A stretch of DNA of 64,000 nucleotides from Bacteroidales bacterium. Lineage in GTDB: Bacteria; Bacteroidota; Bacteroidia; Bacteroidales; F082. Every line of letters starts with the position of its first letter. Positions within the stretch are counted from its first letter, which is position 1. A model generated the notes under the pieces. The model worked only from the letters and a program-made list of their open reading frames with translations. It did no database searches and was not told the DNA's origin. The DNA is taken from NCBI GenBank assembly GCA_017427985.1, contig JAFRRS010000013.1, positions 4,565-68,564 on the forward strand, read 5' to 3'. Positions 48,349-53,995 of the stretch are shown here, piece by piece. Made by a program: the position numbers and the translations under genes.

Positions 48349-48921
48349 CTATATCATCCTGATGTTGTTGACAAACATATTGACTGCAATCGCCAGTAAA
48401 ATCACGCCGAAGAACTTGCGAAGTATAAAGATGAGATTCTGGCCCAAGAGTTTCTGTATTTTGTCAAGATAGCGAATCACGATGTAATCGAGGGCGATAT
48501 TCAGGAGCAAGCCTATCAAGATGTTGACGATGGCGTAGTCGGCGCGCAGCGACAGCAGACCGGTCAAGGCACCGGGACCGGCTATCAGCGGGAACGCCAC
48601 AGGCACTATGCTCGCTCCTCCGTTGTTGTTCTCGTTTTTTATAATCTCACGTCCGAGAATCATTTCCACGGCGAGGACGAAAAGCACGAACGAGCCAGCC
48701 ACCGCAAACGACGCCGAGTCGATGCCGAACAGCCTCAGCAAGCCGTCGCCCGCGAAGAAAAACGCCAGAAACAAGCCCAGAGCCACCAGACAGGCCTGCC
48801 CCGCCTTGATAACCTTGTCCTGTTCCCTCATGCTAACAAAAATCGGGATGGAGCCGAAGATGTCGATGATGGCTGCCATCACGAAGAAAGCACCGAATAT
48901 TTCTACGAAGTTGATGTTCAT
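48349..48921 (-). CDS. MarC-family (UPF0056) membrane protein
   Basis: Multi-TM protein starting at the internal MNINFVEIFGAFFVMAAIIDIFGSIPIF. The 23-codon extension in the ORF track is read through a REP unit (..SIPLRFSRNDE..). Confidence 0.78.
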   Translation of the reverse strand: MNINFVEIFGAFFVMAAIIDIFGSIPIFVSMREQDKVIKAGQACLVALGLFLAFFFAGDGLLRLFGIDSASFAVAGSFVLFVLAVEMILGREIIKNENNNGGASIVPVAFPLIAGPGALTGLLSLRADYAIVNILIGLLLNIALDYIVIRYLDKIQKLLGQNLIFILRKFFGVILLAIAVNMFVNNIRMI

Positions 48922-48942
48922 TTTTATACTTGTTTCGTTTTC

Positions 48943-49028
48943 GTCATTTCGACTGAAGCGTAGCGGAATGGAGAAATCTCCTGCAAACACATGAGATTTC
49001 TCCGCTCCCTACGATCGGTCGAAATGAC
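48943..49028. repeat. inverted pair of REP-like units (GTCATTTCGAC...GGAGAAATCTC / GAGATTTCTCC...GTCGAAATGAC)
   Basis: Units 48943-48980 and 48993-49028 were read directly. They belong to the same family as 32199-32231. Confidence 0.85.
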
Positions 49029-49035
49029 GGGGTTA

Positions 49036-50349
49036 TTACATGTTTCTGCAGATATAGTGATAATGCGGGCCGAAGCGTTTGAATGCGGCTTCATCGAGTT
49101 CCTCCTGATATTTCGGGTGGGCTACTGAGATGATGAGCCGTGCGCGTTCCTGCAGCGAGCGTCCGTAGAGGTTCACTGCGCCGTATTCTGTGATAAACCA
49201 ATGGATATGGTTGCGTGTGGTGACAGCGCCGGAGCCCAAATCGAGAGCAGGCACGATCTTGTTGATACCTTTTTTGGTTGTCGAAGGCATCGCTATGATA
49301 GCCTTGCCGCCTTGGGCGCGCGACGAGCCGTAAACGTAGTCGATCTGACCGCCCACACCTGAGTAAATCTTGTCACCCAGCGAGTCGGCGCACACCTGCC
49401 CTGAAAGGTCGATCTGGATTGCCGAGTTGATAGACGTCATCTTTGGCTGCTGCGCAATGACAAACGGGTCGTTGGTGTATTCCACGTCTTTCAGCAAGAC
49501 CTCGTGGTTGCCGTCGATGAAGTTATAAATCTTCTGCGAGCCCATCACGAAGGTGGAGACGATTTTGCCTTTGTCGAGCTTCTTGTTGTCACCGGTGATG
49601 ACGCCTTCTTTCACCAAAGGCAAGATGCCGTCGGAGAACATCTCGGTATGGATTCCGATGTTCTTGTGGTTATGAAGACACGAAAGGATGGCGTTAGGGA
49701 TGCTACCGATACCCATCTGGAGGCAGGCGCCGTCCTCGATGAGCTCAGCGCAATAACGCCCTATGGTCTTCTCCACTTCGTTCGGCTCAGGCATATCGAC
49801 AGTGAGCAACGGGGTGTCGTCTTCAACGAAAACATTGATTCTGCTGATGTGGACGAGCGCGTCGCCGAAAGTGCGCGGCACGTGTTTGTTGACAACCGCG
49901 ATGACGAACTCGGCACTCTCCATTGCCGCCAAGGTCGCGTCGACGGAAGAACCTAACGACACATAGCCGAACTTGTCGGGCGGACACACCTGAATCATAG
50001 CGACGTTGCATTTGATATATTTCTCGCGATAGAGTTTCGAGGTCTCGCCAAGAAACACCGGGATGTAGTCTGCAAGACCTTTCTGCACGCTCTCGCGGAC
50101 GTTGGCGCCGACGAAGAAGGCGTTGTGCTGGAAGATACCCTCAAACTCCGGATTGACGTATGGGGCCGCGCCCTCGGTGTGAAGGTGGTGGATATAAACG
50201 TTTTTCAACTCTCCTGCCCTTCCGCGGTCACAGAGAGCCTTCACCAGACACTGCGGCACACTCGACACCGAACTGATGTGAACATGGTCGCCCGATTTTA
50301 TGACTTTCACGGCATCAGCCGCTGAAACTGCTTGATATTGTTTCCTCAT
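49036..50349 (-). CDS. acetyl-CoA hydrolase/CoA-transferase family enzyme (4-hydroxybutyrate/succinate CoA-transferase-like)
   Basis: 437 aa with LQMGIGSIPNA, HTEMFSDG and SGVGGQIDYV. Confidence 0.85.
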   Translation of the reverse strand: MRKQYQAVSAADAVKVIKSGDHVHISSVSSVPQCLVKALCDRGRAGELKNVYIHHLHTEGAAPYVNPEFEGIFQHNAFFVGANVRESVQKGLADYIPVFLGETSKLYREKYIKCNVAMIQVCPPDKFGYVSLGSSVDATLAAMESAEFVIAVVNKHVPRTFGDALVHISRINVFVEDDTPLLTVDMPEPNEVEKTIGRYCAELIEDGACLQMGIGSIPNAILSCLHNHKNIGIHTEMFSDGILPLVKEGVITGDNKKLDKGKIVSTFVMGSQKIYNFIDGNHEVLLKDVEYTNDPFVIAQQPKMTSINSAIQIDLSGQVCADSLGDKIYSGVGGQIDYVYGSSRAQGGKAIIAMPSTTKKGINKIVPALDLGSGAVTTRNHIHWFITEYGAVNLYGRSLQERARLIISVAHPKYQEELDEAAFKRFGPHYHYICRNM

Positions 50350-50361
50350 GATGATAATCTA

Positions 50362-53300
50362 CTATTTAATGATTAAACGTTCTGTAAAGACGCAAGATTT
50401 TGTGTCTCTGCCATCATAATTGACGCGAATAATATACATTCCAGGATTCAATTCTGAAACATTGATTTCCGTTTCGGTTGATGTCAGAACCTTGCGACCT
50501 GTAATGTCGTAAATTTCAATGCGTTGTTGAGACGCAAAATTCTGCGTCTCTATGGGCAAATGATGATTTGACCCTACGAATATGATATCATGGGCTGGGT
50601 TCGGGTAAACCGAAATCGTCACATCGCCGTTTTCTGCAATGCCATCAGGGACGAAATTCATTGTGACATCGAACTCGAAATCGACATGTTGTCCGTCGCT
50701 GGTGGCGCGCATAACGAGGTGTGCACTGCCACTTTCATTTGTAAGACGTGTCATATTGAGAGCCTTGCCGTCCATATTCGCCTCGAGCGCGTTCTCGTTG
50801 GAATTTGAGACGATGCTGTAAACGATTGCCTCGTCTGGGTCGTCAGGGTCGGATGCCACGCCTTCGAGATTGACTTCAATTGTCTGCGGGAACTCGCTGA
50901 AGACCACGTTTTCCACAGGATTCACAATATATGGCGGCAAATCCTGAGGCACGCCAGGAGCTGTCCCGTTGAAGTCGTCGATGCAGAAATAAGCCGGAGT
51001 CAACATTCCGTAGGCGTTTCCTTTAGTTGATGAGAGGCTGAATGAGATGGTGTGAACGGCACCGAGCTGGCTGAGGTCAAACCACTCCCATGTGTCGACG
51101 ACGTAATCTTCATCGTTGTTGTCAAAACGATAATCCGCCAAGTAAAAATCAAGTGTTCCAACGACTTGGCCGCTTGCGTTTTTGCCTGTCGCGGTAAGCT
51201 TGAACCAGTCAGGGTCGTTGCCTGTAGTGCCGCCAAATGGTGTTGAAGACGCGTCTCCCTCGACGACGCTCTGATAAGCCCAAAGGTTGTTGGTGACATA
51301 ACATCCAGTGATGGCATGTGCCTGACCGTCAGAGGCATAGACATCGGTCTGTGCGCCGAATGTGTAAGCGACACCGTATTGTGCCGTGCTGTTGTGACCG
51401 CCGGCAGTCACCGCGGTGTATTGTGCATCCATGCCTGTCTGCGTCAAATCAGTGTGGTTTGAAGCGGTGAATCCGCCCCAGAAATATGAAGAGTAATAAT
51501 TCGTGAAGATCCAGCCGCCGCTGAACATCTCGTTCTCGCCTTCACTGCCAATCCAGTAGCCGCTTGTGCCAATCTCGACATCTTCAAATGAGGCGGTCCC
51601 GACTGTCACCACGACTTCAACGCCCGACACGCTGACGTTCATGTCGACGTGCTTGCCGTTGCTTGTGGCACGGATAACCAACGTCTTGTTTGTGAACGCG
51701 TTAGCGGTGTTTCTTGTCACCGTAAGCATGTCGTCATCGTCGATTGAGGCGGTGATTTCCGACGGGCAGCTCTGCACCGTGATGACGATGAAAGCGTTGT
51801 TGTTGTCGGGGTCGTCGAAAGTGTCGCTGAGGTCGAAATTCAGACTCTCCGGATAGCTCGTGAAGTTGATTGGAGCGAGCTGGTTTGCAACGACAGGCGG
51901 CAAATCCTCGGCGACGCATTCCACCGAGAAGCTTGTCTGCACCGATTGTCCTGCGCTTTCGGCATTGAGCGTGATTGTAGCTGTTCCGCCAGTGCTTGCG
52001 AGACGTGTGACGGTTAAAACCTTATTGTTCAAAGTCGTTGAAACGAGTGTCGGGTTGCTGTTTGAAGCGACGGTGATAACGATGTTGTTGTTCGGGTCGT
52101 CAGGGTCGTTGAAAGTGTTGGTCAGGTTGACGGTCTGGCTTGCCGGATATGTGTTGAAAGTGATGTTGCTGATTGGGTTTGCCACGACTGGCGGAAGGTT
52201 TGTTCCTGAAGCGTATTCGTCGGCACCGGCACAAGGTGTTGAAGCTGAACGGTTCTGCTCGTCGATGTCTTTCGGAACGTATGAAAGCGGGTTCGCGACT
52301 GTCAAGCCATCAGCTGAAGTGACATGTAAGTCGCTGGCACCCACGAAGTTAGGCGTGCAGAGACTTGAATGCGTGTCGAAACCGGTAGCCGTTGTCCAGT
52401 CGCCCAATGTGGCGCAGTTTGTGGAAGCGAAATACCCAATATTGCTTCCCGAAAACTGGATGCGGTTGTAGTCGCTCATGCGGCTTTCGACGTTGTTGTT
52501 GAAGCGGAAAACATAGCCGTTTGATGAAGTGTTTACAAGCAAATTGTTGTAAAAATTGAAGTTTGTTCCGTTTTTCTGAACGAAAATGTTTCCATTGTTA
52601 CCTGTTCCGCTGCATTTGATGGTGTTATGCGCAAAATCGACATAAGCGCAGTCGTTGTAGTCGATGGAGAAAGCATAACTGTTGCTGCTCGCGTTAGAGT
52701 TCAAATTGATGATGTTGTTTCTGATAATCACGTGGTTGTCGGCTGTTCCAACGCAAGGACGAATCGCGAAAACAGTGGAATAGCTCGTCGTGCGGGTGAC
52801 GTTCATAATGTTTTTCTCAAAAACAGCGCTGTTGTAGCATTGGAAAACGTCAATAGCCCTGTAATCCGTCTTGAAATCGTTGGCGTTGACAATGGTGTTG
52901 CCACGAATGATAATATTATGGTAAAAAGTAGGGTAAATCGACTTGAACTGTTGGTTTTCGAAGTAGCAGTTTTCGATGAGCAGACCTTCGTTGAACTGGC
53001 TCATGTTCTTACCTTGGACGTAAAGCGCGATGCAGCCGTTGATGAACTGGCAGCCCACGAACTGTGTGTCGTGGTTGATGATGCCGTCGCCGTTGTTCAT
53101 GTGGACGAGGTTTTTGTCGTTATCGCTTGAATTTGTAGGCACTTCGACGCCCACGAAGCGCACGTTTTCAAAGCGGTCATAGTCGCATTGTCCGTCAAAC
53201 ACCAGCAGTCTTGCCTTTGACGTCGATGTCGTTGTCAGCGTCATGTTTTCGAAAGTGACGTAGTCGGCGCCACTGAGTTTGAGTGTGCTGTTGTCGGTGT

Positions 53301-53604
53301 AGCCGGCGTTGCTTGTCACCACGACTTGCTGGTTGTCGGCGCCCATGCCTCTGAAAACCACGCGGTTGGTAGCCGATGCGCCGTTGATTTGGTTGATTGT
53401 CACGTATTCTTCATAAGTCCCCGGGGCGATTTCAAAAATCACCTGACCCGACACGCCTGCCGACAACGCCGAGGCCGCCGCGCTGAGCGAGGTGTAGTTG
53501 GGGTTTTGTGAAGAATTGCTGTTGATGGTGTAAGTGCCTGACAATTGGGCATTTACGATTGTCGCAAAAAGAAGCGACAGTGCTAAAAAGAAACACTTTT
53601 TCAT
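50362..53604 (-). CDS. T9SS-sorted surface protein: N-terminal parallel beta-helix repeats, Ig-like repeats, DUF4465-like domain
   Basis: It has a signal peptide and repeated N..F..N beta-helix rungs. The DUF4465-like block ASFEDVEIGTSGYW..FWGGFTASNHTD..AQYGVAYTF maps to about nt 50964-51609. The T9SS C-terminus reads VYPNPAHDIIFVG...MYIIRV...RLIIK. Confidence 0.75.
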   Translation of the reverse strand: MKKCFFLALSLLFATIVNAQLSGTYTINSNSSQNPNYTSLSAAASALSAGVSGQVIFEIAPGTYEEYVTINQINGASATNRVVFRGMGADNQQVVVTSNAGYTDNSTLKLSGADYVTFENMTLTTTSTSKARLLVFDGQCDYDRFENVRFVGVEVPTNSSDNDKNLVHMNNGDGIINHDTQFVGCQFINGCIALYVQGKNMSQFNEGLLIENCYFENQQFKSIYPTFYHNIIIRGNTIVNANDFKTDYRAIDVFQCYNSAVFEKNIMNVTRTTSYSTVFAIRPCVGTADNHVIIRNNIINLNSNASSNSYAFSIDYNDCAYVDFAHNTIKCSGTGNNGNIFVQKNGTNFNFYNNLLVNTSSNGYVFRFNNNVESRMSDYNRIQFSGSNIGYFASTNCATLGDWTTATGFDTHSSLCTPNFVGASDLHVTSADGLTVANPLSYVPKDIDEQNRSASTPCAGADEYASGTNLPPVVANPISNITFNTYPASQTVNLTNTFNDPDDPNNNIVITVASNSNPTLVSTTLNNKVLTVTRLASTGGTATITLNAESAGQSVQTSFSVECVAEDLPPVVANQLAPINFTSYPESLNFDLSDTFDDPDNNNAFIVITVQSCPSEITASIDDDDMLTVTRNTANAFTNKTLVIRATSNGKHVDMNVSVSGVEVVVTVGTASFEDVEIGTSGYWIGSEGENEMFSGGWIFTNYYSSYFWGGFTASNHTDLTQTGMDAQYTAVTAGGHNSTAQYGVAYTFGAQTDVYASDGQAHAITGCYVTNNLWAYQSVVEGDASSTPFGGTTGNDPDWFKLTATGKNASGQVVGTLDFYLADYRFDNNDEDYVVDTWEWFDLSQLGAVHTISFSLSSTKGNAYGMLTPAYFCIDDFNGTAPGVPQDLPPYIVNPVENVVFSEFPQTIEVNLEGVASDPDDPDEAIVYSIVSNSNENALEANMDGKALNMTRLTNESGSAHLVMRATSDGQHVDFEFDVTMNFVPDGIAENGDVTISVYPNPAHDIIFVGSNHHLPIETQNFASQQRIEIYDITGRKVLTSTETEINVSELNPGMYIIRVNYDGRDTKSCVFTERLIIK
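50387..50409. repeat. GAGACG-family hairpin H8 (degenerate: AAAGACGCAAGA|TTTTGTGTCTCT)
   Basis: It has two mismatches plus one G-T pair. It encodes GRDTKSCVFTE in a different frame from H2/H6. Confidence 0.7.
50529..50550. repeat. GAGACG-family hairpin H9 (GAGACGCAAAA|TTCTGCGTCTC, one mismatch)
   Basis: It encodes IETQNFASQQ, between the first two strands of the sorting domain. Confidence 0.85.
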
Positions 53605-53644
53605 TTTAATTTAATTTTAATCCCGAAATAAATTTAACAATATC

Positions 53645-53780
53645 GCTTGGCAAGGTCTTCTGACTCGCCCGAGTCTGCCGCCTTCCCATCTTTCGACAGT
53701 GGCTTGATTGACAGACCTTTACGCCGGACTTACAGCAGCGGGTACTGTTGCCGATTCCCACGGCATTCCCTTTTCCAAAG
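53645..53780 (-). promoter_or_regulatory. cobalamin (B12) riboswitch
   Basis: The minus-strand RNA reads ..GGAAAAGGGAAUGCCGUGGGAAUCGGCAACAGUACCCGCUGCUGUAAGUCCGG..GUCAAUCAAGCCACUGUCGAAAGAUGGGAAGGCGG... It contains AGGGAA, the GGUG-GAA-UCC-like stem, ACCCGC.GCUGUAA, the B12 box GCCACUG and GGGAAGGC. Confidence 0.85.
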
Positions 53781-53786
53781 CGGCTG

Positions 53787-53794
53787 CAAAGGTA
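53787..53794 (-). promoter_or_regulatory. -7 box TACCTTTG driving the riboswitch transcript
   Basis: The reverse complement of CAAAGGTA matches TAnnTTTG. It lies just upstream of the riboswitch 5' end. Confidence 0.5.
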
Positions 53795-53995
53795 CAAATA
53801 TTTTTCTCGTCAGATATCATATTTCAGATAATTATTTTTCAGATAAAAAATATCGTTATCTTTGCACCGACAAACACTCTATCCCATGTCAAAGACTGAC
53901 GATTTCAAAACAAACCGCACTATTCGCAAAGTGTCATTGCCGGCTGACGGCGACAGACTGTTGGAGGTTTTCGAGGCGACGAACGTTTAGCTTAT

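Follow-up and report, generated by a model that had tools for sequence, protein, structure and literature searches.

A cobalamin riboswitch heads the gene of a giant protein with a BtuJ-type domain and a T9SS sorting domain in a Bacteroidales genome

The window analysed here, by which we mean the whole stretch of 64,000 nucleotides of Bacteroidales DNA, contains a single Rfam match: a cobalamin riboswitch (RF00174) on the minus strand at 53805..53633, which cmscan scored at 82.7 bits (E 7.6e-19, against a gathering score of 31.5) over positions 1-189 of the 189 in the model. The start codon of a 1080-aa gene (53604..50362, minus strand; ATG at 53604..53602) begins 28 nt 3' of the aptamer end, and on the same strand there follow the genes of a 437-aa CoA-transferase of the acetyl-CoA hydrolase/transferase family (49036..50349) and of a MarC/NAAT-family membrane protein (48349..48990). 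A preliminary description of this DNA had already located a cobalamin riboswitch at 53645-53794, which interval lies within the Rfam match, and the two short motifs that it named there, the B12 box GCCACUG and a -7 promoter box, were found at 53703..53697 and 53794..53787, respectively (both minus strand).

The B12 box, the P1 helix, and the L5 loop could all be placed within the aptamer (53633..53805, minus strand), and the leader also contains the GGGAA/GACC core. Directly 5' of the aptamer stands the sequence TACCTTTG (53787..53794, minus strand), a pattern match to the Bacteroidota -7 box TAnnTTTG that is unchanged and in the same position in all nine aligned leaders—this one and eight of its orthologues from congeneric species—and that, according to a pattern scan, is the sole consensus -7 box on the minus strand from 53794 to 48380. 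The P1 register given by Rfam overlaps this box, and we dropped that register for a P1 of our own reading just 3' of the box (53781..53775 pairing with 53650..53645, by duplex check), which helix pairs in 9/9 leaders. A duplex search among the nine found that the best P1 sequence differs in the leaders L015, L016, and L017, the duplex being GCUU(U)GG/CCAAGC here, CGGAUUCGGG/CCCGACUCCG in L015, and UCA(A)UGG/CCAUGA in L017; and because the sequence differs yet pairs, the helix is conserved, which is compatible with a transcription start right after the -7 box. Neither RNAfold on the single leader nor RNAalifold on the nine recovered the riboswitch fold, and the Rfam alignment together with targeted duplex checks was used in their place.

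Between the aptamer and the gene, the nine-leader alignment and folding placed an A/U-rich hairpin (53602..53632, minus strand) as the putative expression platform, whose 3' arm extends to the start codon and whose loop, CGGGA (53625..53621), complements the CCCG of the L5 loop (53742..53739). Both loops are invariant in the nine leaders, so that their complementarity has no covariation support, and the hairpin is very weak by itself. In eight of the nine leaders 26-30 nt separate the aptamer from the ATG, too short a stretch to accommodate a terminator. The layout is that of the kissing-loop, translation-blocking cobalamin riboswitches, by analogy with which we infer the mechanism of this one.

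The 1080-aa protein, read from its N-terminus, starts with a Sec signal peptide (residues 1-20, MKKCFFLALSLLFATIVNA, followed by Q; 53545..53604, minus strand, like all the coordinates in this paragraph), which, as read from the translation, is of the signal peptidase I type (…VNA before Q) and without a lipobox. There follows a right-handed parallel beta-helix (residues ~21-410; 52375..53544), which accounts for 40% of the protein and which AlphaFold2 modelled over residues 21-468 with a pTM of 0.83 and a pLDDT mostly between 80 and 93; this part was modelled on its own because the Foldseek search with the full-length model was swamped by multi-Ig matches. Two Ig/cadherin-like modules come next (residues ~470-565 and ~568-662; 51619..52197), recognised as beta-sandwiches in the AlphaFold2 model and by Foldseek matches to multi-Ig/cadherin chains; then the DUF4465, or BtuJ-type, domain (residues 705-878; 50971..51492; PF14717, E 1.6e-52); then a third Ig/cadherin-like module (residues ~888-985; 50650..50943), with a weak match to PF16184 (Cadherin_3, E 0.0044); and finally a T9SS type A C-terminal sorting domain (residues 999-1080, with the stop codon; 50362..50610), of which residues 999-1068 match PF18962 (Por_Secre_tail, E 1.9e-12) and the NCBIfam model TIGR04183 (E 1.8e-10). 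The signal peptide, the beta-helix, the DUF4465-like block, and the sorting domain had all been recognised in the preliminary description, whose account of the protein is borne out in these four respects.

The Foldseek matches of the beta-helix, all at the level of the fold (TM 0.4-0.5, 10-13% identity), comprise the GH136 lacto-N-biosidase LnbX, PL6 lyases acting on chondroitin or alginate, CE8 pectin methylesterases, the adhesin PfbA, and phage tailspikes. Residues 1-467 gave no Pfam match, so none at the family level to PL6, GH136, or CE8. This part of the protein may span the surface layer as a spacer, bind glycans or cells as an adhesin, or be an enzyme. As a candidate relative we considered BtuL (BT1955), a lipoprotein from operon 2 that is described as beta-helix-like (PMC13616437).

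With respect to the DUF4465 domain (IPR027828), its fold is that of BtuJ1 (BT1491) and BtuJ2 (BT1957), surface- and vesicle-borne lipoproteins whose affinity for cobalamin is in the nM-pM range (PMC12751083; review PMC13616437), and six more divergent members also bind B12 (PMC13398666). The hallmark of the B12 contact is an HI-loop containing Tyr245 in BtuJ1, with the motif MNTPSY there and GTPAYF or NTPAY across the family (PMC12751083, PMC13398666). Against the PDB, the domain matched BtuJ1 (9QPM/9FCT, E 1.6e-25), D5EK51 (9HMU, E 1e-18), and BtuJ2 (9I2L, E 6.7e-08), with 4JQR and 4E9K also among the matches; while phmmer, run with the whole 1080-aa protein against all PDB chains, returned DUF4465 entries only. 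The suggestion in the preliminary description that the domain was of the BtuH kind, which had been flagged there for checking, is in this way corrected to BtuJ1/BtuJ2, the BtuH structure 7BIZ not being among the phmmer matches. Foldseek likewise returned 9HMU, 9FCT, 9QPM, and 4JQR at a TMt of ~0.5; the confidence of the AlphaFold2 model (pLDDT) is low in DUF4465, and the domain assignment therefore rests on sequence. The HI-loop motif reads LTPAYF, with Y872 aligned to Tyr245 of BtuJ1; in the DE-helix W775 is aligned to Tyr146 of BtuJ1, at which position the unliganded 4JQR also has a Trp, with Y777 shortly after. In 26 orthologues Y872, W775, and Y777 are unchanged. The 1080-aa protein is a member of the DUF4465 family, and carries a predicted B12-binding domain of the BtuJ type.

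A survey of 60 related genomes found orthologues of the 1080-aa protein, at 53-78% identity, in 11 species of the same genus, ten of them full-length and one truncated after DUF4465. The riboswitch heads a co-directional string of genes at 11/11 of these loci and stands directly upstream of the orthologue at eight; in G026 and G008 it precedes an extra DUF4465 gene, itself 5' of the orthologue, and in the split forms of G022 and G031 it likewise stands before a DUF4465 gene. The family as a whole gave 667 matches; among the 120 listed many are near-full-length at 66-98% identity, all of them carry both PF14717 and PF18962, and the named ones are 'Bacteroidales bacterium' MAGs.

Two variants met in the survey are recorded for their own sake. 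In G029 (L028, 1142-2307) the riboswitch precedes the gene of a 321-aa deletion form of the orthologue, in which residues 1-55, 659-736, and 885-1080 are directly fused, so that the beta-helix is lacking and most of DUF4465 is gone, the CoA-transferase gene coming next. In G034 (L007, 1098-1189) the cobalamin riboswitch is preceded, ~85 nt further upstream, by a TPP riboswitch that lies on the opposite strand and diverges from it.

The assembly from which the window comes (2.49 Mb, 98.9% complete) contains three cobalamin riboswitches. One of these, on contig 21, drives btuB (Plug and TonB barrel) and btuG (DUF5074), which pair tblastn found to be the sole copies in the genome; the encoded BtuG is a lipoprotein, with a lipobox and the surface export signal FSCKKDEE. 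Within the window tblastn found no homologue of either gene, in agreement with the preliminary description, which had noted that no btuB was adjacent; its further statement, that the riboswitch controlled this protein rather than a transporter, holds locally but not genome-wide, where btuB-btuG has a riboswitch of its own on another contig. Two genes for the sortase PorU score above the NF033707 cut-off, and sorting domains number ~80 above the Pfam cut-off, or 93 at E<=0.001. The genome also encodes a methylmalonyl-CoA mutase (MM_CoA_mutase), an OAM-type B12 subunit, and BtuF with a FecCD permease, and CbiC was not found in it; this gene content fits a B12-requiring corrinoid auxotroph, the auxotrophy being read from one marker (CbiC). 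On contig 15 (28326-28691; L041) the B12-binding subunit of an ornithine/lysine-aminomutase type adjoins a subunit of 3-oxoacid CoA-transferase, with BtuF and FecCD ~9 kb away, which neighbours suggest a B12-dependent pathway of amino-acid fermentation.

The third cobalamin riboswitch (114 bits), on contig 20 (245835-248593; L004, 1836-4597), drives two T9SS-tailed proteins alone. The first, of 395 aa, consists of two ~140-aa repeats and a sorting domain and has a faint match to DUF4430 (transcobalamin C-terminal-like); close homologues with more repeats bear the precomputed annotation PF14478, and we regard the protein as a candidate B12 binder of an uncharacterised bacterial family. The second, of 430 aa (P0122; L004, 3305-4597), begins with a 240-aa domain that we call X ('GPYxPAAGQ'), with the motif …PAxxQxGtTA…FAVFENGF…VEVSSDG and with no Pfam or PDB match, profile search included. 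Residues 885-1080 of the 1080-aa protein, that is, its third Ig module and sorting domain, are 66% identical to the C-terminus of this 430-aa protein. Within the sorting domain the coding stretch 50387-50550 (minus strand) encodes …IETQNFASQQ…, and the near-identical IETQNFASLQ and VETQNFVSVQ occur in the two contig-20 proteins. Domain X has 49% identity to an N-terminal domain fused to DUF4465 and a sorting domain in G038 (L039, 10564-12252), and it heads nine DUF4465 proteins (1234-2569 aa) that are among the 150 closest representatives in a database search described below. The eight of these inspected were all without a T9SS sorting domain, and most start with an N-terminus of the …LEDRRLLA type, from which our guess is that they come from Planctomycetota.

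We propose that the locus carries a B12-repressed gene for a T9SS-exported corrinoid-capture protein, located at the surface or released, that feeds BtuG-BtuB; to which reading we assign a probability of roughly 0.78. Transcription would start just 3' of the TACCTTTG box, and the leader would fold as a cobalamin aptamer. With a cobamide bound, the CCCG of L5 would pair with the CGGGA loop of the A/U hairpin and translation would be blocked, so that the 1080-aa protein would be made at low B12. Sec would take that protein, with its signal peptidase I site, over the inner membrane, the T9SS would recognise its type A C-terminal domain, and PorU would remove the latter, leaving the protein anchored at the cell surface or free. 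The BtuJ-type jelly-roll of DUF4465 would capture the corrinoid, with the beta-helix and the Ig modules as an extended arm or an adhesin. The corrinoid would then pass to BtuG, the lipoprotein, and BtuB, its TonB-dependent partner, encoded elsewhere under their own riboswitch—which hand-off, since btuB and btuG are not adjacent, is proposed by analogy only—and be imported by BtuF/BtuC for use by methylmalonyl-CoA mutase and an aminomutase. Four observations agree with this reading: members of DUF4465 bind B12 in experiments (PMC13398666, PMC12751083), the riboswitch goes with the gene at every orthologous locus examined, DUF4465 proteins with a sorting domain are encoded in btuB operons of other families, and the genome has PorU sortases together with its many sorting domains. 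Against it weigh the Trp in place of Tyr146 of BtuJ1 and the low model confidence of DUF4465, which leaves the geometry of the pocket tentative.

The place at which such a protein would act allows of two versions. The cargo with type A sorting domains is either anchored or released, and the 1080-aa protein, once freed by PorU, might be a soluble 'cobalophore', or a sequestrant that starves competitors, instead of a tethered antenna for BtuG-BtuB. The lack of linkage between its gene and btuB-btuG in this genome would agree with such a carrier, as would the siderophore-like role proposed for BtuJ on vesicles (PMC12751083); but a 1000-residue arm of beta-helix and Ig modules resembles a surface stalk more than a diffusible carrier, and the sequence does not discriminate between the tethered and the released fate. 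We regard the released form as rather unlikely, although it agrees with all the observations.

A different division of labour would make the beta-helix the working head of the protein—for binding or cleaving glycans, or for adhesion, perhaps to B12 producers or to mucus at times of B12 scarcity—with DUF4465 as an accessory and with B12 binding unneeded. The enzymes, the adhesin, and the tailspikes among its Foldseek neighbours would suit that role, and the related genome G049 has homologous modules in further giant proteins, away from riboswitches. Those neighbours, however, are matched at the level of the fold only and no catalytic motif was identified, whereas the binding motif of DUF4465 is conserved and the split forms in relatives keep the riboswitch before the DUF4465 gene; we consider it improbable that the beta-helix is the functional head, and hold to the corrinoid-capture reading.

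As to the genes downstream, the CoA-transferase (PF02550, PF13336), which is closest, below the cut-off, to the butyryl-CoA:acetate and 4-hydroxybutyrate CoA-transferases, begins 12 nt after the 1080-aa gene. A pattern scan found no -7 box between the two genes, nor did a scan for terminator-like sites, uninformative overall, give one there. The CoA-transferase is probably a co-transcribed passenger of the 1080-aa gene, and the MarC gene (PF01914, E 2.9e-30), which accompanies the CoA-transferase in relatives, probably ends the transcription unit. G024 (L046, 7173-9320) has its orthologous riboswitch, which shares 87% identity with that of the big gene in G002, 28 nt 5' of the CoA-transferase ATG, with MarC and then the orthologue of the 1080-aa gene coming after; G026 and G031 carry the pair of CoA-transferase and MarC on the opposite strand, in convergent orientation, and G002 and G011 lack it and have a tRNA next. 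In some species the expression of the CoA-transferase and MarC may possibly be B12-repressed. That this pair should be the selected target of the riboswitch, in a metabolic response to B12 shortage with the big gene as the passenger, would accord with the gene order of G024 and with the 12-nt gap, devoid of a -7 box, in the window, but is highly improbable in view of the four genomes in which the pair is convergent or absent while the riboswitch still stands before the DUF4465 or big gene.

The association of DUF4465 with a T9SS tail extends beyond this genus. In three other Bacteroidales families, proteins with DUF4465 and a C-terminal sorting domain are encoded within riboswitch-controlled btuB operons: in G038 the riboswitch is followed by a 563-aa DUF4465 protein with the sorting domain, a 464-aa protein with the sorting domain, and a TonB receptor; in G044, by a 606-aa DUF4465 protein with the sorting domain, a TonB receptor, and BtuG (DUF5074); and in G059, by a TonB receptor and a 332-aa DUF4465 protein with the sorting domain. 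An exhaustive HMMER search with the DUF4465 domain gave 3009 cluster representatives, the best 150 of which we screened with an HMM made from the sorting domains of the genome studied here. Of those 150, at least 77 end in a T9SS sorting domain—the T9SS-tailed form of DUF4465 being thus common in sequence space—while ~10 are lipoprotein-like, and many are of 1500-3000 aa with two to five copies of DUF4465. In the literature on the T9SS together with cobalamin riboswitches or BtuG we found no paper describing this arrangement, and the DUF4465 papers do not mention the T9SS. There is nothing unfamiliar in the riboswitch, the binding domain, or the secretion signal taken singly; it is their combination, and the size of the protein, that we did not find described.

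A wider reading, which we offer tentatively as a possibility of less than even weight, is that this uncultured lineage has rebuilt its whole extracellular cobamide relay on the T9SS, two riboswitches driving three T9SS cargo heads in replacement of the lipoproteins BtuH, BtuJ, and BtuK. Those heads would be the BtuJ jelly-roll on its beta-helix arm, the tandem transcobalamin-beta-domain-like (DUF4430-like) repeats, and the 'GPYxPAAGQ' domain; at least two of them would be B12 binders of uncharacterised families and might be released as diffusible cobalophores, and a B12-repressed CoA-transferase would tie the regulon to fermentation.

In gut and rumen communities fitness depends to a large degree on B12 scavenging, and the current model of that process—BtuB, BtuG, BtuH, BtuJ, BtuK, and vesicles—derives, to our knowledge, from one species without a T9SS. 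The present results suggest that many T9SS-bearing Bacteroidota deliver the same binding domain by another export route, on larger modular arms, and sometimes from stand-alone riboswitch units; if so, the place and mode of corrinoid capture would change, the binder being tethered far from the membrane or else released. The locus supplies candidates for new B12-binding families and would add a nutrient-regulated class to the T9SS cargo. We see in this a useful extension of known B12 scavenging and no new principle.

Among the known systems, BtuJ1 (BT1491) and BtuJ2 (BT1957) of Bacteroides thetaiotaomicron share with the 1080-aa protein the domain family, the Tyr of the HI-loop TP(A/S)YF, the cobalamin riboswitch, and an extracellular place as partners of BtuG-BtuB, the last of which is for our protein the proposed role. 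The BtuJ proteins, however, are lipoproteins of ~250-300 aa, with an SPII signal and a lipoprotein export signal, encoded inside btuB operons and loaded onto vesicles, whereas the 1080-aa protein has an SPI signal, a T9SS sorting domain, an added beta-helix, and three Ig-like modules, and is encoded in a riboswitch unit of its own apart from btuB-btuG; the surface-lipoprotein feature that it lacks belongs to the BtuJ members that have been studied and not to the Pfam family. BtuH (BT1488, BT1956; PDB 7BIZ) is likewise an accessory surface B12 binder of the same loci, with Ig/PKD spacers, but its binding fold is unrelated to DUF4465, and no sequence match between its structure and the 1080-aa protein was found.

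The type A cargo of the T9SS, exemplified by the gingipains and HBP35 of Porphyromonas gingivalis, has the same plan of a Sec signal, a modular body, and a C-terminal domain of ~80 aa, in which domain the YPNP and terminal K motifs are common to that cargo and to the 1080-aa protein; PorU, too, is present here. We found no paper on T9SS cargo that captures a vitamin or is controlled by a riboswitch. The regulatory logic, together with the allocation of tasks, is that of the riboswitch-controlled btuB-btuG(-btuH/J/K/L) loci of Bacteroides, in which surface capture proteins feed a TonB transporter capped by BtuG; but in contrast to those loci the genome studied here has three riboswitch units on three contigs, and its accessory proteins are all T9SS-tailed instead of lipid-anchored, BtuG being the sole lipoprotein.
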